From the IMG/VR virus record IMGVR_UViG_3300037155_000096: 64,000 bases of DNA; one strand, written 5' to 3'. The position numbers and the translations under genes are program-made. The DNA is from a virus. This document shows positions 48,904 to 58,225 of this stretch, piece by piece. Under the pieces are notes generated by a model. That model did not search any database. It had not been told where the DNA came from and saw only the letters and a program-made list of their open reading frames with translations. Position 1 is the first letter of the stretch. Each line of letters starts with the position of its first letter.

Positions 48904-50364
48904 TTATTTTTTTCGGCTTTCGTCGCTGATTCTAATCAGTTCTTCCATCGATACTCCGCACACATCTGTGCCTTTCTTGCTTGGAACTCTGTTATTCTCA
49001 CCTACATTGCCGACGACTTCTTCTGTCAAAGACAAATTCTTATTCGCCTTCAACCTCCTCTGAACATCTTCAAACAGCCCATTCTTGTGGGATACATCCT
49101 TTTTAATTTGCGCTTGACGCCCTCTATCCTTGAGGAAATTGTCTAACGTACCATAGACTTCCTCTTCGCTATCGACCAGCTCTTCAATCATGGCTACTTC
49201 GAGAAGCTCAAGCTCCCCAGCAGTTATGCCTGATTTCATCGCCAGACTACCAGCGTAGTTTTGTAAAGCACTGTTCTCCCCATAAGGTAGCGGATCTTCA
49301 TTCTCTACCGTGAGGGCAGGTACTGGTGCTCTTTCAGTTCTGCCAGATTTCCTCTCAGCTATTTTGCTAGCCAGAAGATCTCTCTTAGTTGATACAATAT
49401 TTTCAACGACCTTCGGTTTTACCGCAGGTACAGGAGCCATTACTATTTTGGCTTTAATTTTTTCAATTACTTCTTTTAGTTTCGTGGATAACGATGCGAG
49501 ATCCTCGAACAGAGATACATCCCCAATGAGTCCGAGAACTTCTTCCCTTACTTCCGAAGTTACGCCCCTTAATGTTTTTTCAGTAAACAACTCGTAGCCA
49601 GCTCTTTTAGCTGCACCAGCGAAAGTCAACATCTTCAGCGTTAATGCTGTATCTTCCTCAACATGCTGTCCGATTTCTAAATTCAATCTTGTTATCTCGG
49701 ACTCTAAGAACTCGTTTCTTGTAATGAGGACCTGCTGAGCTTCTTTCATACCGTTGAGTTCCAAATCAGGATCTTCAGCGGTCTCTACATCAGGCAATAT
49801 GATCGGATTGCCCGTTTCGTCAACACCTTCCTTGGTGTATACTGGTTCTGCAAATTCTCCGGCAGCGCCTTCATCTACGCAGTCCCATGTTTTCAAACTG
49901 TAATCGCTCTGCACTATCTGGAGAGGACGACCATCAGGTAATTTCTCTTCCGATAACTTTACTGAGCCAAATCCTCGGCTTGAGACATCCACCGGTACTC
50001 TTGCGCCGATTAAAGCCGACAAATCCTGACCATTATGGGTAGGTAATACTTCCAGCCCGCCAGTGATTATGCCATCTTCCCCGATACTTAGCTCCGTGAT
50101 GATATGCGATACTCTTGTCAATTTTGTTTTGCCGTCGCCAGGATGGTCTAATTCGCCCTTTAATTTTCTTGCTTTAATGGCGGGTTGAAGCTTGGCAACT
50201 TCCCTTTCCATTATCGGTCTGGGATAAACTCTGCCGTTCGCAGTAGGTCTATCGCATTTACCGAACGGACCTCTTCCCTTTATAACGCCAGGAAAATCTT
50301 TATCTTCATATAGTTCGAAAATAACAGTCTGGCTATCGGTCAATAATTCTCTTAAATAACTCAT
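48904..50364 (-). CDS. Prohead protease (T4 gp21-like) fused to a scaffold-like coiled coil
   Basis: NGRVYP, GELDHP, RVSH and VSSRGFGS protease motifs, followed by ~290 aa of coiled coil. Confidence 0.9.
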   Translation of the reverse strand: MSYLRELLTDSQTVIFELYEDKDFPGVIKGRGPFGKCDRPTANGRVYPRPIMEREVAKLQPAIKARKLKGELDHPGDGKTKLTRVSHIITELSIGEDGIITGGLEVLPTHNGQDLSALIGARVPVDVSSRGFGSVKLSEEKLPDGRPLQIVQSDYSLKTWDCVDEGAAGEFAEPVYTKEGVDETGNPIILPDVETAEDPDLELNGMKEAQQVLITRNEFLESEITRLNLEIGQHVEEDTALTLKMLTFAGAAKRAGYELFTEKTLRGVTSEVREEVLGLIGDVSLFEDLASLSTKLKEVIEKIKAKIVMAPVPAVKPKVVENIVSTKRDLLASKIAERKSGRTERAPVPALTVENEDPLPYGENSALQNYAGSLAMKSGITAGELELLEVAMIEELVDSEEEVYGTLDNFLKDRGRQAQIKKDVSHKNGLFEDVQRRLKANKNLSLTEEVVGNVGENNRVPSKKGTDVCGVSMEELIRISDESRKK

Positions 50365-50386
50365 TTCAAATCCTTCTCATCGTTAC

Positions 50387-50659
50387 TTATGCTCTGATAC
50401 CCTTGTCCGTGAGCTTGAACGCTCTTTTCTGCTTGTGCTTTTTCTTCAACGGACTGTGCTTAGATCTCAGTGCCTTAACTTTGTTTCTTAAAATATCTTT
50501 GCCTGTTTTAATCCTTATAGAGAGCCCCTTCTTACCTCTTCGTGCAATTAGAACTTTGGATTTCCCCTTCAGAGTAAGAGTGTGCCGTACTTTTACAGCT
50601 CTCAAACTCTGAAGGGTTCTCCCTTCCAATATCAACCCCTTTAGTTCTCCTGACAGCAT
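50387..50659 (-). CDS. Small highly basic prohead core protein
   Basis: 90 aa, Lys/Arg-rich, in the head operon. Confidence 0.55.
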   Translation of the reverse strand: MLSGELKGLILEGRTLQSLRAVKVRHTLTLKGKSKVLIARRGKKGLSIRIKTGKDILRNKVKALRSKHSPLKKKHKQKRAFKLTDKGIRA

Positions 50660-50665
50660 GGCGTA

Positions 50666-51463
50666 TTAAACGACTGCTGCTGGTTCTACAGCGGGAACAA
50701 CCGCGGGAACTACTGCAGGAACGACCGCAGGAACTACTGCTGGGACAACCGCAGGAACAACTTCAGGATCTGCATCCTCGTTGATTGCGATTAAGTCGGC
50801 ATAGGTATCGAGCATTTCGTATACTTCCTCTGCGAGTTCGTATAATACTTCTTCAACTGCTTCTTCGTCGAGTTCCTCGGTAGCTTCCTCGATTTCAGTT
50901 TCGAGATCTTCGATGACTTCAGATATTTCTTCTGAGCCGTCAGCTATGAACTCAATATATTCCTGAACCAATGCATCTTCACTTTCAAACAATGGTGTCA
51001 CATTTTCCTCAACAAGAGCGAGTATCTGGGACATTTTTTGTAAAACTTCTAATGCTTCATCCTGGACGGAAGCTGCAAGAGAGATTCTTTTTCCGGATTT
51101 GTGAATTGCGGTGATTTTAGCAATGCCTAATCTTTTGATTGCTTTCGCTCTTTTGAATAGACTTTTTTTACCGGCAGAAGAGTGTCTGAATTTCTTTGCT
51201 TTAGATTTCAGTTTGCTTCTGTTCTGTTTGTAGTATCTCTTAGCTTTTTTCTTAGCTAAACGAGCTGCCGAGCCGGTCTTCAATTTGAGTATCTTGATTT
51301 CATCAAGATTTGAAGCTGGTTCAACTGCTGGAACTACTGCGGGGACTACTGCGGGAATAACTGCGGGGACTACTGCGGGAACAACTGCTTCCACGATTGG
51401 AGTAACCAGACCTAATGCTATTAAGTCTTCGTCCAATGAGGTTAGAACATGTGTTTTTTTCAT
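50666..51463 (-). CDS. Prohead core/scaffold protein with VVPA repeats
   Basis: (VVPA)n at both ends, a basic block and an acidic block; first gene of the head operon. Confidence 0.65.
   Translation of the reverse strand: MKKTHVLTSLDEDLIALGLVTPIVEAVVPAVVPAVIPAVVPAVVPAVEPASNLDEIKILKLKTGSAARLAKKKAKRYYKQNRSKLKSKAKKFRHSSAGKKSLFKRAKAIKRLGIAKITAIHKSGKRISLAASVQDEALEVLQKMSQILALVEENVTPLFESEDALVQEYIEFIADGSEEISEVIEDLETEIEEATEELDEEAVEEVLYELAEEVYEMLDTYADLIAINEDADPEVVPAVVPAVVPAVVPAVVPAVVPAVEPAAVV
50678..50762 (-). repeat. 12-nt-unit coding tandem repeat (VVPA), C-terminal
   Basis: About seven units, degenerate at third positions. Confidence 0.9.
51314..51390 (-). repeat. 12-nt-unit coding tandem repeat (VVPA), N-terminal
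   Basis: About six units. Confidence 0.9.
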
Positions 51464-51589
51464 TCTGATCTTCTCCTAACTTTTGATTTATAGTAATTTT
51501 CTTTCTCACTTAACACGAACCACTTACTTAAATCATCAGTTAGAGCACTTACAGAATTAAAGGCATAAGCCTTGCACAATCTTAAAACA

Positions 51590-51619
51590 AGTTTACGAAC
51601 ATCGAATCCCTATTGTCAA
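51590..51619 (-). promoter_or_regulatory. Sigma70-like promoter candidate for the head operon
   Basis: TTGACA (51619-51614), 18-nt spacer, TAAACT (51595-51590) in the intergenic region. Confidence 0.5.
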
Positions 51620-51650
51620 TGGAACGGACGTCCTTATGGCATCTGTGTCC

Positions 51651-51890
51651 CTAAATGCAGGGGATTGCCGTAGCTTCAGTTAATCGCTTGTTAGCATATT
51701 CGACAAACGAACTTTCGCTTATCCGTGTATTACGGGGAGTCTTTCTTATAGCTTTCAGTTCTCCCGTTTCGATTAGACGGTACACAGTCCTTGTACTGCA
51801 TCCGAGCTTGGATGCTACCGAGTGAACATGTAGTCTATAGTCTTGCAAATTAGTCATGATATCATTCATCTGGTTTATCAATTCTTTCAT
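51651..51890 (-). CDS. Excisionase-like (HTH_17/MerR-type) DNA-binding protein
   Basis: VHSVASKLGCSTRTVYRLIETGELKA...RISESS. Confidence 0.85.
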   Translation of the reverse strand: MKELINQMNDIMTNLQDYRLHVHSVASKLGCSTRTVYRLIETGELKAIRKTPRNTRISESSFVEYANKRLTEATAIPCI

Positions 51891-51951
51891 ACATTTCTTA
51901 CAAATAGATTTATAATCGTTGCGAAATTGTGTGCACTTAGCTTAATCATCA

Positions 51952-53712
51952 TCATTCGAAATACTTCGATGCATCTACTCTACCTTCTGAATCATCTTCC
52001 ACGCCACCACCGAAACTTGACCTCTTTCCTGAAATCTTGATACCTTTCTGCATCTCAAGGATCTGAGACATGAGCTTTTTCATATCCTTAAATTTTTCAC
52101 CATTGACATAGTTACTGTCCATGATTTCATTTAATCTCTTGTCGAGATTTTTCTCCCTTACCGCCCATTCGCGGGAATTACGTAATTTATCCTCTCTACC
52201 AACCAACATCGCTTCCCTTAACATGTTGCCACGAGTGTATGTGGATTCTTCTGCTGGTGGGCTTGCCTGTAATGCAGCGTTTTGAGCCTTCAGATCCGCA
52301 CTTACCTCACTGGTCTTCTGTCTGAGCACTACCTTAGCATCTGCTTCCGCCATACCCAGTATCCTTGTTAAAATCCATTCCTTAGAGACGAACGGATCTA
52401 ATTGAGCGGCAAGAGCCACCTTGGTATTTTCTACTTCCAGATTGGCTATCTCAAATGCCGTCGATGGGACAGCCATTTTAAGAGTATAGTCCAATTTTCT
52501 GTAGTCGACGCCCCTTATCGAGTAATCTACACCGATAATCTTATTATAACCGACCAGCAGCTCCCTCTGAAGCCTTAATACCGTTCTTGCGAAACGGATA
52601 TCTTCGTTGGAACCGGCTGTTCTGGAATCTGCCGTTTCATCGTAGGTCAGGAATCTCTTGGGAATCTTTAATCCCGCGAATTCTTTATTCCTGTAATACG
52701 ACAATTCATCAAGGCTCTGGTAATCCAGTGCTGGAAGATTCTCTATTCTGGTCGGATCTTTCGAGTCGCGTACACCAACCCAGATATCTTCCTGCTGAGC
52801 GAGCGGATTCGTTGAGAACTCCAACTTGCCCGTTCTTGGATTGATATAACTCTTCTTTCGATACTCTCTCTGAAGTTCTTTCATGAAGGCTTTGGATTCC
52901 TTCGGTGACTTGTTGCCAGTATTTACATAATAAACCAGTCTGTTGGGAGATCTCGTAATCTTATACAGTATCGTGGCGTCCTCTAACAACTGTAACCGTT
53001 TCCATGCCCATCTTGCGTTCTCGGCTAATCCGAATCCATATCTGCTTCCGCGATTCTTGGTCCTGAGTCTGAAATGAATCATCTCCCAGTTATCGAAGAA
53101 GGTCGAGGACTCCTGATGTCTGACATTCCCGGCTACCGCATCAATAACTTCCTGATCTTTGTAATTGAACTTGCCCTGGTAATCGACACCAAATGCTGTC
53201 TTCCCACCGACTTCATATCTCCTGGCAATAGCTGGACTAATAAAGTCAAGACCATTAACGCCCTTATCATCATACAGGATGGCTTCAAAATCATTACCGT
53301 ATTTTGCAATCGTTCTGGCTTGTTCCCAAATATTCTCTTCTACCTTCAGGGTATTATCAAGGAAGTTATTCAGGTACGTCCTCGTAGTATCATCAAGCGA
53401 GTCCACCCACATGGTTTTCTTCAGCTTATAATCCATCTGGGTTGCATCATCAGCGTAAATATCGTATGCGCTTCCTATGATGGGATCGCTATCATCCATA
53501 TTTTCGTAATCGATATATCGGGTGATCAGATCCTGACTTACCTTCAAATGTTCATACAAGTCTTCATAGCCGTGTCTGACATACAACGATGACGCTGCTC
53601 CGCCTGCTGCTACTCGTACTGGAGCTTGACCTGTTTTTGGATCTATTGCCGGCGTGTCAGTCTGATCGCTGAACAGTAACTTTATAAAGCCTAAATTCTT
53701 AATTCCTGCCAT
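51952..53712 (-). CDS. Portal protein (T4 gp20-like)
   Basis: YENMD.SDP.I..AYDIYADD, IHFRL, WKRLQLLEDA.ILYKITRSP.R and LKIPK motifs. Confidence 0.95.
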   Translation of the reverse strand: MAGIKNLGFIKLLFSDQTDTPAIDPKTGQAPVRVAAGGAASSLYVRHGYEDLYEHLKVSQDLITRYIDYENMDDSDPIIGSAYDIYADDATQMDYKLKKTMWVDSLDDTTRTYLNNFLDNTLKVEENIWEQARTIAKYGNDFEAILYDDKGVNGLDFISPAIARRYEVGGKTAFGVDYQGKFNYKDQEVIDAVAGNVRHQESSTFFDNWEMIHFRLRTKNRGSRYGFGLAENARWAWKRLQLLEDATILYKITRSPNRLVYYVNTGNKSPKESKAFMKELQREYRKKSYINPRTGKLEFSTNPLAQQEDIWVGVRDSKDPTRIENLPALDYQSLDELSYYRNKEFAGLKIPKRFLTYDETADSRTAGSNEDIRFARTVLRLQRELLVGYNKIIGVDYSIRGVDYRKLDYTLKMAVPSTAFEIANLEVENTKVALAAQLDPFVSKEWILTRILGMAEADAKVVLRQKTSEVSADLKAQNAALQASPPAEESTYTRGNMLREAMLVGREDKLRNSREWAVREKNLDKRLNEIMDSNYVNGEKFKDMKKLMSQILEMQKGIKISGKRSSFGGGVEDDSEGRVDASKYFE

Positions 53713-53713
53713 A

Positions 53714-54829
53714 TTAGCTTAACCTCTTTTTCAGGTCTTCGAAGACCGCTATCAAATGTTTACAAACTTTCTTTTTCATTCCTGGGTTGGTCTTTAACGG
53801 TGGCTCCATGATCGAATTTACTATATGGCTTGCGTTGGTCTTCCATAAACTGTATTCATTTTCAAATGTGAAATTTTCGCAGTTGCAATGCAGTATTACA
53901 TTCTGGCTGATCGTAGTTAATCCCTTAACATTCGGCAGAGGCTTTATATACTGTCTGTGAACGTGATGGTTACTTTCTGTAACCGTCTTATAAATTAACT
54001 TGCCAGCTTGGGTGATGTTCAGAAGTGTCGGTTTAATATCTTCCGCCCGCAGCTTAAAACGCCTGGGCGTTGTTTTCATTAACTGAGCTATACTTCTTTC
54101 TTCCATCATAGCTTGAATCAAGGACTCTACCAGTCCCCATTTACCGTCAGCATATTTCTGAAGATTCTTGAGCTTAATATCTTTCTGTTTCTTCAGACGT
54201 TCGCTCTGAATGGTCGTGATAAGCCCAGCAATCTTATATTTCAGATTCTTGACAGCTTCCTTATCGGAAGATGCTGTAGTCTCGATATAACCGTCTTTGT
54301 TGGGAGTCTCATCAGTGCGGACTGCATTAGTGAACGCTTTATACATGACTACTTCTTCCTCCACGGCATTCTTCTTCAGAATGTAAGTCATATACTCTAT
54401 CCCCTTACTGGTATGCATTTCAGTTTTGTCCAGCTTGAAGCCTTCGTTCTCTGCGAACTTATCGATTAACGCTTTATAAAGCTTGGCTCTGGAGTTCTTG
54501 CCGCCCTCTTCATACTTCGCGATAATCCAGATCTCCTCAATGGTCTTCACCTTCTTCACATAATCTTTTGCGATCTGGATTACCGTGGATAGTATTCGGA
54601 ATGCATCACCCTTTCCTGTAACTTCAGCCGAGCCCGCATCATCATCAAAATGAATTGCGAACGACTTACCGTTATCCCTGATTTTCGTTAAGACTTTGAA
54701 TGGCTCTCTACCGTCCGGCTGGAAGGCGAGAGTACGAGTACCGTCTCCGGGCAGTAAATTCCCCAGATACTTGTAGGGCTTCGCAAGAACCTCTATCAAC
54801 AGATCTAATTCTGAACTCATCGTTAACAT
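53714..54829 (-). CDS. Multi-domain protein with C-terminal SWIM-like zinc finger
   Basis: N-terminal TGKGDAFRILSTV...SRAKLY domain; C-terminal CNCENF...VCKHL. Confidence 0.7.
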   Translation of the reverse strand: MLTMSSELDLLIEVLAKPYKYLGNLLPGDGTRTLAFQPDGREPFKVLTKIRDNGKSFAIHFDDDAGSAEVTGKGDAFRILSTVIQIAKDYVKKVKTIEEIWIIAKYEEGGKNSRAKLYKALIDKFAENEGFKLDKTEMHTSKGIEYMTYILKKNAVEEEVVMYKAFTNAVRTDETPNKDGYIETTASSDKEAVKNLKYKIAGLITTIQSERLKKQKDIKLKNLQKYADGKWGLVESLIQAMMEERSIAQLMKTTPRRFKLRAEDIKPTLLNITQAGKLIYKTVTESNHHVHRQYIKPLPNVKGLTTISQNVILHCNCENFTFENEYSLWKTNASHIVNSIMEPPLKTNPGMKKKVCKHLIAVFEDLKKRLS

Positions 54830-54955
54830 ATTTTATTTCACATAAAGTCATATCGTTGACATCCGTTCTTGCTTGCCTTATCCCATTCAAATCTTTACTT
54901 ATAATCACTGCATAATACGTGTCGTGTTATATAACACCAATAACCGTTCCAAGAT

Positions 54956-55045
54956 TTACTTCGCTGGTACCGGCTCTGGTTTCTTTTCTAACTGCTGGAT
55001 GATTTCGTCCAGCTCTACAGTTAGGTCTTTCAGTTCAGTTGCCAT
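54956..55045 (-). CDS. Micro-ORF (29 aa, not in ORF track)
   Basis: AAGGAG RBS; MATELKDLTVELDEIIQQLEKKPEPVPAK*. Confidence 0.6.
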   Translation of the reverse strand: MATELKDLTVELDEIIQQLEKKPEPVPAK

Positions 55046-55061
55046 AACATTTCTCCTTATT

Positions 55062-56225
55062 TTAATCTACTTGAACAAACCCATCAAAACCTGAATCGCC
55101 CTCATCGTCAGCCTCCGCCGAAGCACTTATTCTTTCGCCCGGCTTACTTCTCGATGACTCCGAATAAAATGAAGTCCCTTCACCTGGGTATTTCGTCGCC
55201 AGCGTGAATACTACCGCAGCGATTGCGTCGCTTACATCCTTTGAATAATCATCGGGATGGTCGACTTTTCCCTTATATGCATTAAATTCTAATCTTCTTA
55301 ATTCTTCCTGAGCCGGCTGATACGGGTACATTTTTAATCTGTCTTCATATAATGTTTGCTTCAATGTATCATAAGCCTTCATCGGACGGTCTACCGACAC
55401 TACTTCCGACTCGTATCCGCGGGCTTTGAACGCCTGGATGCTGTCCGCAGACTGGTACGAATCCATCGATATGTATCTTATGGGCATTCCCATTTCATGC
55501 AAAGCGTATATCAACTTCCTGATATCCTGGAAAATTATATCTTCTCCCATCCTTGGATGAATCCTTAACATCAGGTCGATTTGAATCAGCGGGCGTGTTT
55601 CCACCGTTACTATCGGACCGACCTTTTTCCGGATCTCTTTGTATCCGTAAATGTGCCCTATTGCTAAACCCGTGGCATCTCCCCTCAATGAAGCGTCAAT
55701 ATGGACATGACGGGATGCCTCTGGGTGAAATCTTGGTACTCTTTCACCAAACTCGTTAATCTTAAATAATGCTTCTGTCAGGAACTTACCTCTGTCAGTC
55801 ATATCCCAGACTTCCTGAGTAAACGGATGCTGATAACTGTCATCGACTGCATCCATGATCTTCTTGCGGTTCCTTATGAACGGCGTAATAGCCACCGTAC
55901 TTACTCCGGCAAGATCTCTCAATGCTGTATCGGTATCTCTCATAAAATCATCATAGAAGTCCATGGGTACATCGATAATCTGAACTTCTTCCATACCCTC
56001 GTATTCAGTGACATCTTCTCCATCTTCCAATACCTTAGAAGATAATACTGAATTACCGACCAGCACCTTAAACCTCTCAGGCATGAATATCTTAGCATCC
56101 TTAGCTCCCCACTGACTGTTATGGACTACTAATCCATTCGCCAGCGTGAAATTATGGCAACTGTCTTCCTCGATATCATAGACATCTTCATTACCATCAA
56201 ATTCTATCTTTGCGATACGCTTCAT
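55062..56225 (-). CDS. terL: Terminase large subunit C-terminal part, preceded by split-intein C-fragment
   Basis: Starts with a 36-aa IntC ending VVHN|S. Then an RNase H-like nuclease: HVHIDASLRGDATG, ISMDSYQS, SKDVSDAIA. Confidence 0.92.
   Translation of the reverse strand: MKRIAKIEFDGNEDVYDIEEDSCHNFTLANGLVVHNSQWGAKDAKIFMPERFKVLVGNSVLSSKVLEDGEDVTEYEGMEEVQIIDVPMDFYDDFMRDTDTALRDLAGVSTVAITPFIRNRKKIMDAVDDSYQHPFTQEVWDMTDRGKFLTEALFKINEFGERVPRFHPEASRHVHIDASLRGDATGLAIGHIYGYKEIRKKVGPIVTVETRPLIQIDLMLRIHPRMGEDIIFQDIRKLIYALHEMGMPIRYISMDSYQSADSIQAFKARGYESEVVSVDRPMKAYDTLKQTLYEDRLKMYPYQPAQEELRRLEFNAYKGKVDHPDDYSKDVSDAIAAVVFTLATKYPGEGTSFYSESSRSKPGERISASAEADDEGDSGFDGFVQVD
56118..56225 (-). mobile_element. 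Split intein C-fragment (IntC, 36 aa)
   Basis: Block F VYDIEE and block G HNFTLANGLVVHN; Ser+1 nucleophile at 56115-56117. Confidence 0.93.
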
Positions 56226-56226
56226 G

Positions 56227-56556
56227 TTATTTCAAGAATCCCGCTATTGCCTTGAGTTCTTTCGCAGAGAATATCCATTGCGATTGCTTGCCATTGAATT
56301 CCCCAATGAACCTGATACTGCCATCCTTTAATTTCTCCATGGTAGCATTGTCCAATACCAATACTTCTATAGTGCCGGCGTTCAACACTGGTTTCCCATC
56401 ATCACCAACGATAGTATCGCCCAGTTTCAATTTCGAATAAACTCCTTTCTCCGCCAATCTCTTTTCCTCCATAATCGAAGGGATCAAATCTTCCGGAACT
56501 TTCCCACCCAGTATTTCAAAATCTTCTGCCAGCGAACTTATTTTAACCTCTTTCAT
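56227..56556 (-). CDS. Hypothetical protein between the terminase halves
   Basis: 109 aa; N-terminus ISSLAEDFEILG resembles LTSLDEDLIALG of the prohead core protein. Confidence 0.7.
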   Translation of the reverse strand: MKEVKISSLAEDFEILGGKVPEDLIPSIMEEKRLAEKGVYSKLKLGDTIVGDDGKPVLNAGTIEVLVLDNATMEKLKDGSIRFIGEFNGKQSQWIFSAKELKAIAGFLK

Positions 56557-56565
56557 AACTTCTCC

Positions 56566-57057
56566 TTATGCTGCTTCTTTTTTAATAAATAACTTGTAAT
56601 ACGCCTTCAGATAGCCACCATACGTGCCTGTCGCTACCGCCAACTTGTTCATTTCGCTGTGGCTATACGTTATAACCTTGAAATAAACGTCCTTCTCAAC
56701 TTCTCTTTTCAATACCAGCTCGCCCGTCACATCGAAATACTGACCTTTGTAGACGTTGAAAGCATGGTCAATCGGTATTCCGACTATATCTGCGAAGCCC
56801 TCGACATATTCGACTCCCGATATGTGCGAAGCCACCTGATAAGCATTCTGGTAACACTGCTTCGCCTGGAACATTTTGATCAGCCTATAAACGTCATTGG
56901 CTATTTCAGGGATCTTCTCTACCGAGACAACCTTCACCGCCTTCACTAATTTCGCCTGCCATGCATACAGATCTGAATCGCCAGTATAAAGTTTCGATAT
57001 CATTTCCAGATGGCTCTTGGGCGACTCTTCCGCTATATTAAAAGCTGAACAATTCAT
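56566..57057 (-). CDS. Transglutaminase/papain-like Cys-His-Asp protein between the terminase halves
   Basis: KQCYQNA (Cys), YVEGFA, IPIDHAF (His), YFDVT (Asp). Confidence 0.7.
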   Translation of the reverse strand: MNCSAFNIAEESPKSHLEMISKLYTGDSDLYAWQAKLVKAVKVVSVEKIPEIANDVYRLIKMFQAKQCYQNAYQVASHISGVEYVEGFADIVGIPIDHAFNVYKGQYFDVTGELVLKREVEKDVYFKVITYSHSEMNKLAVATGTYGGYLKAYYKLFIKKEAA

Positions 57058-57331
57058 CGCCCACCTTTAAGTTCTGAAGTTCCACATAAGTTAAATCGTT
57101 CATAAGGAACGGATGCTCCTTCGTAGCTCTCACTACAGAGCCATCTTCCATCGTGATTTTATAAACAGGGACATTAACTCCTGTCCGCTGAGCTGAATGC
57201 CCTTTACCCAGAACGCCCTGACCCGTGGCTGGATCTACCGATACGGTCCTAAAATTCTCAACGCCGACTAAATCTTTAATAGCAATTATGCCCTTCAGCG
57301 GGATCTTAATCGGAGTGTCGCCAGTTAAGCA
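57038..57331 (-). mobile_element. Split intein N-fragment (IntN, 97 aa)
   Basis: Block A CLTGDT, block N2 VYKITMEDG, block B ATKEHPF, ending LKVGDELFSF*. Confidence 0.93.
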
Positions 57332-58225
57332 ATATTCTCTTACGAATACGTTGGGATCTTCTCTTGCCTCAGCAATTCTTCTTTCAGTAAAATCGGTCGT
57401 GGTTCTTTTGGATGAAACCAGAAACAATTTCCCTGGCATTTTTCCAAACTTGTTAAACCGGGACTTGATTCTACGACTTACCTGAGCATATAGTAACTCT
57501 GCATTATCTACATGACCATGACGGGCATGTGAAGCCTTCATTTCCTTGCTCATAGCTCCCAAGAAGTTCGACTCATCCATGATTGCACCGATTGCGTTAC
57601 TTCCTATACCTGCATTTGCCGTACTGGAAGCTGGAGTCGCCCATACGTTATTCGGGAATCTTATTTCCTTCTGAGTCAGTTTCGGTTTGAACTTCTCATT
57701 GAAATACGGACTCATCGTGAGCATACCCTGAAGATCTTCGAAGATTACTTTACGAGCAGTCTGCTCTGACAATGAAATCGCCAGGAATGCTATCAGGGAA
57801 TCAGGAGCCAATCCAAAAGACTTCTGCGGATTGCGTAAACAGCTCATCTCATAGAACACTCTGCAGGCAGCTATTTTAGCCATGTAGGTCTTGCCCCAGC
57901 CGAGTGAACCAGTTAAAATAACTTCATAATACTCTCCATTGAAGAGTTCTATCATGTCGTCAATTAGCTTCGGCCATAGATTATGCACCTTCCCGAAGTG
58001 GTACGGATCTGTCAACCATGTTTCGATATCCACCATAGGTTCTTGGAACTCTAATTCGTTCATTAGTTCAAGTAACCCAGTTTTACCGCCGGTCATTTCA
58101 GCCATAATAAGTTGCATCACTTCCATCTCTTCAGGTGAAAGTGACCTTACATCCCTCTTTAGAAGTTTCTGTACCTCCTCCGGAGTCTGTTTACTTATAT
58201 TACGACCATCAATGAGTTCTATCAT
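57038..58225 (-). CDS. terL: Terminase large subunit N-terminal ATPase part, ending in split-intein N-fragment
   Basis: Walker A GSLGWGKT, Walker B AIMDESNF, motif LVSS, then EY|CLTGDT. Confidence 0.92.
   Translation of the reverse strand: MIELIDGRNISKQTPEEVQKLLKRDVRSLSPEEMEVMQLIMAEMTGGKTGLLELMNELEFQEPMVDIETWLTDPYHFGKVHNLWPKLIDDMIELFNGEYYEVILTGSLGWGKTYMAKIAACRVFYEMSCLRNPQKSFGLAPDSLIAFLAISLSEQTARKVIFEDLQGMLTMSPYFNEKFKPKLTQKEIRFPNNVWATPASSTANAGIGSNAIGAIMDESNFLGAMSKEMKASHARHGHVDNAELLYAQVSRRIKSRFNKFGKMPGKLFLVSSKRTTTDFTERRIAEAREDPNVFVREYCLTGDTPIKIPLKGIIAIKDLVGVENFRTVSVDPATGQGVLGKGHSAQRTGVNVPVYKITMEDGSVVRATKEHPFLMNDLTYVELQNLKVGDELFSF

Follow-up and report, generated by a model that had tools for sequence, protein, structure and literature searches.

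RESULTS

Organization of the locus

We analyzed a 64,000-nucleotide (nt) stretch of an uncultured T4-like phage (IMG/VR virus record IMGVR_UViG_3300037155_000096), here called the window. In this stretch, the gene for the large terminase (TerL) is split by an intein, and two genes, ORF163 and ORF109 (ORF, open reading frame), lie between the intein halves IntN and IntC. The four genes are tightly packed head to tail on the minus strand in the order TerL-N plus IntN, ORF163, ORF109, and IntC plus TerL-C. Their features are as follows (aa, amino acids; pI, isoelectric point).

57038-58225, minus strand: TerL-N + IntN, 395 aa
57332..58225, minus strand: TerL N-extein, 298 aa; Walker A GSLGWGKT, Walker B IMDES, C terminus ...VREY; bounded by comparison with the intact homologue P0156
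57038..57331, minus strand: IntN, 97 aa plus stop; block A CLTGDT, block B TKEHP; PF14890 match at E 4e-6 (under the curated cutoff)
56566..57057, minus strand: ORF163, 163 aa; predicted Cys68-His98-Asp109 thiol enzyme of transglutaminase/papain-like fold; unnamed phage family
57028..57057, minus strand: ORF163 leader, residues 1 to 10 (MNCSAFNIAE); lineage specific; similar to the T4 capsid-targeting sequence in I8 and E10; 20 nt at its start are shared with the end of IntN
56854-56856, 56764-56766, and 56731-56733, minus strand: codons of ORF163 Cys68, His98, and Asp109, in the motifs QCYQNA, IDHAF, and YFDVT
56227..56556, minus strand: ORF109, 109-aa orphan; pI 5.2, no His, no Cys; leader MKEVKISSLAE ending in L9-A10-E11
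55062-56225, minus strand: IntC + TerL-C, 387 aa
56118..56225, minus strand: IntC, 36 aa, ending ...GLVVHN before Ser+1; PF14890 positions 122 to 155, phrog_28563 at E 1.8e-8
55062..56117, minus strand: TerL C-extein, 351 aa plus stop; nuclease domain

An earlier note, made from the letters of the window and the translations of its ORFs, had described a 163-aa ORF with the three motifs given above and a 20-nt overlap with the IntN stop. We confirmed these coordinates: the ATG of ORF163 overlaps the IntN stop by 20 nt and is preceded by AAAGGTGGG. The start of ORF109 lies 9 nt past the ORF163 stop, with AAGGAG 6 nt upstream, and the start of IntC plus TerL-C lies 1 nt past the ORF109 stop. ORF163 and ORF109 thus fill the spacer between the intein halves completely and on the same strand, and there is no unoccupied DNA in which a decayed endonuclease gene could be hidden. 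One public gene call places the ORF163 start at Met19 (window positions 57003-57057). We preferred the longer start at 57057 because two residues conserved in the family, K14 and L17, lie upstream of Met19.

No promoter-like or terminator-like signal inside the four-gene string exceeded shuffle expectation. For this reason, the four genes are most simply read as one late transcript, probably with coupled translation. The T4 late promoter TATAAATA has two matches in the window, which is the chance level, and none near the locus. We also considered that the two cargo genes might be a recent foreign arrival. This was not supported; their GC content (0.42 to 0.44) is the same as that of the flanks.

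The terminase gene is divided by a split mini-intein

A class-1 split mini-intein divides the large terminase at VREY|S. Terminase PHROGs match the N half, as does the first part of the Pfam intein-splicing domain PF14890, whose last 34 positions match the C half; both PF14890 matches are partial and under the curated cutoff. In an intact homologue (P0156; 652 aa; 62% identical), the junction region is ...VFVREY|SQWGAKDAK..., where the window has ...VREY followed by CLTGDT... in one gene and ...VVHN followed by SQWGAKDAK in the other. From this comparison we assigned an N-extein of 298 aa, an IntN of 97 aa with blocks A and B, an IntC of 36 aa ending in HN, and Ser as the +1 nucleophile (VVHN|S).

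A second homologue (P0155; 61% identical) carries a contiguous 137-aa mini-intein at exactly the same site. When the window halves are joined, 63 of 134 residues are identical to those of this mini-intein. Alignment to P0155 maps the break between ...GDELFSF and MKRI..., which is the usual endonuclease-insertion loop. We compared the window with a sister contig (L001; 97.9% nucleotide identity) and found ratios of nonsynonymous to synonymous change (pN/pS) of 0 to 0.10 for both intein halves and both exteins, with IntN at 0.10. We concluded that purifying selection acts on all four segments. We read the terminase as the product of two ORFs whose proteins are joined by trans-splicing.

The earlier note had pointed to the gene content between intein halves in related contigs as informative. 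We found the same cargo arrangement in one lineage only, represented by near-identical contigs in several samples. One of these contigs (L165; Ga0182022_1289141) has 14 single-base indels over the intein halves, the cargo, and TerL-C. Decay of the cargo was considered for this contig and rejected: the indels are scattered over all six parts, as is typical of assembly error. Assembly error is the most likely cause and explains the truncated proteins P0004 and P0158.

Among 80 distant IMG/VR TerL relatives, none is interrupted at the VREY|S site. Eight of the 80 are interrupted at the P-loop site by ~1 to 1.25 kb, and all six whose frames were inspected have in-frame LAGLIDADG inteins there. The Walker-B site holds one mini-intein (in L119), and it is also where L111 is fractured, with an out-of-frame ORF that has many NUMOD3-like repeats, as in the classical arrangement with an endonuclease. 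P0155 and P0157 begin with an IntC at this site, as part of a split intein; P0155 therefore carries two inteins, one split and one contiguous. A fourth insertion site lies near residue 525 (L137 and L139). The intein-bearing relatives that we noted are P0155, P0157, L085, L101, L111, L117, L119, L124, L128, L130, and L137/L139. These insertions mark the TerL family as a hot spot for inteins, which occupy four or more different sites.

ORF163 belongs to a large phage family with an invariant Cys-His-Asp triad

Word-index searches with ORF163 returned only near-identical copies, and Pfam, PHROGs, NCBIfam, and PDB sequences gave nothing useful. An exhaustive phmmer search found 391 cluster representatives (50% identity) at E ≤ 1e-3, 103 of them at E ≤ 1e-10, and 198 IMG/VR stretches encode relatives. 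We aligned 80 stand-alone relatives (~30% identity). C68, G87, H98, and D109 are the only invariant columns; Y84, N101, and T111 are nearly invariant, and the family consensus motifs are KxCYxNA, YVEG, GIPIxHAWN, and GxYFDxT. Conservation of the Cys, His, and Asp residues, which the earlier note had named as a check on its proposal, is thus far from chance.

Membership in a curated family, such as Transglut_core or peptidase clan CA, was not detected at threshold in Pfam, NCBIfam, or PDB profiles. The nearest named clusters are Pfam YunG (PF24585) and Phage_YunG-like (PF24591), with protein-language-model scores of 0.87 to 0.88. Weak matches to them occur in 11 and 6 of the 80 relatives, respectively, all under the curated cutoffs, and window ORF163 has none. 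PF24591 finds nothing in five phage records with ORF163 homologues. We did not assign ORF163 to either cluster, as the gathering threshold was not reached.

A search of 185,579 species genomes with one narrow pattern gave an ORF163-type match in only two short contigs of metagenome-assembled genomes. By these counts the family is essentially phage borne. The only cultured-phage match is in Alistipes phage AS73P1, whose neighboring genes are all annotated "hypothetical," and the relatives that we examined are labeled only "hypothetical" or "uncharacterized."

ORF163 is predicted to have a thiol-enzyme fold

An AlphaFold model of ORF163, built on the 80-sequence alignment, has a predicted local distance difference test score (pLDDT) of 93 and a predicted template modeling score (pTM) of 0.87. 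In the model, Cys68 is at the first turn of helix 68-78, His98 is in strand 94-103, and Asp109 is just past strand 106-108. The earlier note had also suggested structure searches. Foldseek against the PDB gave no match at E ≤ 0.001. Alignment-based (VIA) searches were more productive: almost all matches at Z ≥ 3 are transglutaminase/papain-like thiol enzymes, covering model residues 47 to 160. The best match is LapG (Z, 6.3; root mean square deviation, 3.6; 89 residues aligned), followed by PeiW and PeiP (Z, 5.7 to 5.8), TglA (Z, 5.7), the MOA/PSL protease domain (Z, 5.1 to 5.4), arylamine N-acetyltransferases (Z, 4.9), and protein glutaminase (Z, 4.5). SpvD, SseI, staphopain, VASH, and TG2/TG3/factor XIII match at lower Z scores.

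Three observations together lead us to predict, with high confidence, a transglutaminase/papain-like thiol-enzyme fold for ORF163: the list of matches is uniform, the triad is invariant, and its residues are correctly placed on secondary-structure elements. This agrees with the earlier note, which had read the gene as Cys-His-Asp hydrolase-like. ORF163 would attack a protein or peptide amide bond by way of a thioacyl intermediate; it could be a peptidase, an isopeptidase, a deamidase, or a transamidase.

Fusions and genome neighborhoods of ORF163 relatives

About 80% of the family is stand-alone, without a conserved partner. Roughly one-fifth of the top representatives are multidomain proteins of 320 to 1844 aa in which the domain is N-terminal, in the middle, or C-terminal. 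Fusion partners include NUDIX, zeta-toxin kinase, NT5C nucleotidase, GNAT, DUF5661, a zincin-like peptidase, and a C39 peptidase. We rejected one candidate case, "eight stretches" in an 1822-aa protein (P0032), which were not recovered by the family hidden Markov model and are probably compositional.

Some homologues form the N-terminal part of 700- to 1800-aa proteins encoded just before gp25-like wedge genes, and stand-alone relatives also occur downstream of a ThyA-DHFR fusion gene. In a group of 46 loci from phages of 40 to 48 kb (L034 to L082), the homologue has a fixed place between the lysis cassette and an exonuclease/replication module. Free-standing HNH genes lie on either side of it in 30 of these loci, and in 33 to 40 the 4 kb upstream include endolysin-like and spanin-like genes. 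In a 181-kb complete phage record (L012:5393-7329), a 187-aa homologue lies between gp19-like tail tube and T4-type baseplate hub genes. In that lineage, such a placement suggests a tie between the homologue and the virion.

None of the 79 other family loci has flanking ORFs that resemble intein halves, and relatives of the window terminase, intein, and ORF109 are likewise absent from these 79 loci. Since none of these loci has intein-half flanks, we concluded that the family is unrelated to inteins in general and behaves as a mobile accessory gene.

ORF109 is a lineage-restricted gene

A homologue search with ORF109 found only near-identical copies. An Atlas search gave no usable match, no profile matched even at E 10, phmmer found no relative among 4459 ORFs around ORF163-family members, and local alignment with the intein gave trivial scores only. 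Compared with its copy in L001, ORF109 has 8 synonymous changes and 1 nonsynonymous change (pN/pS, 0.03). Because of this excess of synonymous changes, we take ORF109 to be a real, lineage-restricted gene under purifying selection. Its model, with a pLDDT of 46, suggests two helices, a small β-sheet, and a C-terminal helix.

The earlier note had proposed that the N terminus of ORF109 mirrors that of the core/scaffold-like protein at 50666-51463. The likeness is there: 6 of 12 residues are identical. It ranks third among the other 243 ORF N termini in the window, and 35 of 2000 shuffles reach its score, uncorrected for multiple tests. We rejected homology to the core protein, for which BLASTP reports nothing. 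The likeness looks like a common short leader, ...(L/I)xE, and not like common descent, and it resembles the T4 capsid-targeting and gp21-cleavage signal.

Short leaders in the head module

T4 internal proteins are loaded into the prohead by a 10-residue capsid-targeting sequence, MKTYQEFIAE, in which gp21 processing depends on residues 8 and 10, and this sequence has been proposed as a general loading route for diverse proteins in T4-like phages (PMC9026906). The window encodes a gp21-type prohead protease (48904-50364) whose N-terminal ~250 residues share ~30% identity with gp21 from T4-like cyanophages and which has matches in 712 phage records. ORF163 carries I8-A9-E10 in the same register as the T4 sequence, and ORF109 carries L9-A10-E11. 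The 80-sequence alignment of ORF163 starts at about residue 13, and because the first 12 residues lie outside it, we regard them as a lineage-specific addition. A leader lies ahead of the conserved domain in 17 of the 80 relatives, and in 8 Glu is at residue 10. Examples are MKHLKNYINE, MKKYTDYIKE, and MKLFEEVINE, and a homologue at a viral locus has MVKKYIEFITE.

Among 62 likely genes of the window, 9 have [LI]xE ending at residues 8 to 13. Such leaders occur in 5 of the 10 head-module genes (48904-58225) and in 4 of the 52 others (Fisher P = 0.004). By analogy with the T4 internal proteins, ORF163 and ORF109 might be capsid targeted, trimmed by the prohead protease, and ejected, a proposal that we put forward tentatively.

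Three other head-module proteins have comparable leaders. They are candidate substrates of the gp21-type protease and could be core or internal proteins.

50387-50659: p90, leader MLSGELKGLILE, (L/I)xE at residues 12-13; very basic, pI 12
50666-51463: p265, leader MKKTHVLTSLDE, (L/I)xE at residues 12-13; scaffold-like, acidic, PAVV repeats
53714-54829: p371, leader MLTMSSELDLLIE, (L/I)xE at residues 12-13

The spacer has no recognizable homing endonuclease

The earlier note had reported that the spacer lacks HNH, LAGLIDADG, GIY-YIG, and Vsr motifs. Our searches bear this out. ORF163, ORF109, and the two antisense ORFs have no match to endonuclease families in Pfam or PHROG, and by eye we saw no GIY-YIG or PD-(D/E)xK motif in ORF109. 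ORF109 has neither His nor Cys, which excludes HNH and any zinc-dependent nuclease family. We concluded that the spacer has no recognizable homing endonuclease on either strand.

DISCUSSION

We consider the locus to be, probably, a split-intein slot that holds two late accessory genes, a thiol enzyme and an orphan, whose products may be packaged and ejected. According to this model, the slot would be a tolerated place inside an essential late operon in which the two genes became fixed, and the original endonuclease, if one was ever present, would have been lost or replaced. The cargo proteins would be made alongside the head proteins and loaded into proheads, where the prohead protease would trim their leaders after Glu. 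They would then be ejected with the phage DNA, and the thiol enzyme would modify or cleave a host target. A broader form of the proposal is that an endonuclease slot was turned into an expression slot for capsid-targeted, ejected effectors and that ORF163 represents a large family of phage-injected Cys-His-Asp enzymes, many with T4-like leaders or within polyvalent effectors. We regard this broader form as doubtful.

The earlier note had proposed that the intein split created a safe slot that was colonized by unrelated cargo. Elsewhere the cargo is indeed unrelated to inteins, and the contiguous mini-intein that P0155 carries at this site fits colonization of a tolerated slot. The order of events in the note was not supported; the split may go back to a free-standing endonuclease that was replaced later, or to the cassette itself.

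Several points weigh against our reading. The structural Z scores are modest (≤6.3) and alone could reflect a common arrangement, and no sequence profile ties the ORF163 family to a solved or curated family. The model of ORF109 is unusable (pLDDT, 46), so a novel nuclease or DNA-binding fold is still conceivable. The Fisher tests were chosen after the data had been seen, and P is 0.015 with a wider definition of the head module. The three-residue leader motif occurs on ~11 to 15% of unrelated N termini, and in 13 of 30 motif-bearing family members it sits inside the conserved first helix and not in a leader. A gp21 homologue is present in two of five records with leader-type homologues and in two of five without, and so does not discriminate between them. 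Whereas the T4 internal proteins are basic, ORF109 is acidic.

Two other explanations concern the role of ORF163. If ORF163 were a virion- or lysis-associated cell wall peptidase or isopeptidase like PeiW and PeiP, its target would be in the envelope and not in the cytoplasm. These two enzymes are among its best structural matches, yet their Z scores are tied with those of LapG and TglA. The genomic contexts also fit a wall enzyme in part: homologues lie between the tail tube and baseplate hub, or at the N terminus of large proteins before gp25-like genes, and endolysin-like and spanin-like genes are close upstream in 33 to 40 of the 46 loci. However, the domain is fused to cytoplasmic nucleotide enzymes, no obvious signal peptide was seen, and no Pfam wall-binding domain was found in ORF163, and we consider a wall enzyme unlikely. 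ORF163 and ORF109 could also form a toxin-immunity (addiction) pair inside an essential gene, with ORF163 as a papain-fold toxin and ORF109 as its cognate inhibitor. The two genes are adjacent and translationally coupled, and the ORF163 domain is at the extreme C terminus of several large proteins, as polymorphic-toxin domains are. Against such a pair, no ORF109 relative lies beside the 79 other family genes, whose downstream neighbors are structural, lysis, or replication genes, and ~80% of the family has no conserved partner at all. Papain-like toxin/immunity entries (9l5u, 8ssm, and 9jdd; Z, 3.0 to 3.4) and "Papain fold toxin 1" viral models do match the structure weakly, but the Z scores of the toxin entries are below those of nontoxin enzymes. 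We consider an addiction pair quite improbable.

Two further explanations tie the cargo to the intein itself. One is that ORF163 or ORF109 is a new type of homing endonuclease, or a DNA-targeting subunit, that mobilizes the intein locus. Its position is exactly that of the free-standing endonucleases in fractured genes (PMC2677866), new intein-associated endonuclease types are still appearing (bioRxiv 10.1101/2025.01.02.630785), and the ORF109 model has no usable fold (pLDDT, 46). Active homing would be expected to spread, whereas the arrangement is confined to one nearly identical lineage and 0 of 80 distant TerL relatives are interrupted at this site. ORF109 has no His or Cys and no profile match at E 10, ORF163 has a thiol-enzyme fold by prediction, and its family is not tied to inteins; we find a new endonuclease very improbable. 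The other explanation, raised in the earlier note, is that the thiol enzyme assists or regulates trans-splicing of the terminase, for example, via thioester intermediates. Only the location and the common thiol chemistry speak for it. None of the 79 other family loci has intein flanks, the family is found in tail, lysis, and nucleotide-metabolism contexts, and split inteins of this kind generally splice without help. We found nothing in support of a splicing helper and give it almost no weight.

We return to a tolerated slot with accessory cargo. A spacer filled with maintained nonnuclease genes shows that, once an intein is split and self-sufficient, its gap is no different from other intergenic sites in an essential late operon, and accessory genes can become fixed there. 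ORF163 itself points to a widespread phage thiol-enzyme family without a curated family match. The fusion partners and leaders of this family point to early host manipulation. The family is a tractable candidate for the biochemistry of counterdefense or host takeover.

Comparison with known systems

ORF163 shares with LapG, PeiW/PeiP, TglA, protein glutaminase, the N-acetyltransferases, and SseI/SpvD the order of Cys at a helix N terminus followed by His and Asp around a β-hairpin. It differs from transglutaminase/papain-like enzymes in having no detectable sequence similarity to them and in the small size of its domain, which is only ~115 residues and follows a family-specific two-helix N-terminal part.

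Iyer et al. (2017; PMC5512222) describe polyvalent proteins of phages and conjugative elements and predict that phage proteins with such an architecture are injected. ORF163 relatives occur as domains of multienzyme proteins together with NUDIX, zeta-toxin kinase, GNAT, and zincin peptidase domains, whereas window ORF163 has a single domain. The peptidase section of that paper describes no thiol peptidase superfamily.

The cargo also resembles the T4 internal proteins and Alt. In both cases, late genes of the head module encode proteins with a leader of 10 to 11 residues that has Glu at the cut and L/I at −2, a gp21-type protease is encoded, and the mature parts are highly variable or orphan. 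In contrast, ORF163 and ORF109 have no homology to IPI-III or Alt, and ORF109 is acidic.

In cyanobacterial dnaE, the intein halves lie far apart, so unrelated DNA can separate them. By this analogy, the principle of unrelated DNA between intein halves is not new. What is new is a compact, codirectional spacer filled completely by maintained nonnuclease genes, together with an unnamed family of phage thiol enzymes.

The closest known arrangement is that of the fractured genes (Dassa et al. 2009; PMC2677866). There too, a phage gene is divided into two ORFs, IntN and IntC have typical lengths, the break is at the endonuclease loop, and the spacer genes are on the same strand. The terminase example in that study was broken at an unusual point, and the window terminase is not. 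The spacers described there carry GIY-YIG or Vsr-like genes, with one locus (gp41-7) empty and none holding nonnuclease cargo. In a survey of actinobacteriophage inteins (bioRxiv 10.1101/2025.01.02.630785), the associated genes are HNH, antisense LAGLIDADG, antisense Vsr-like, and out-of-frame EndoVII-like, all of them nucleases. The window spacer differs in that a thiol enzyme and an orphan take the place of a GIY-YIG, Vsr-like, HNH, or LAGLIDADG gene. We see this locus as a stage intermediate between fractured genes and widely separated intein halves.

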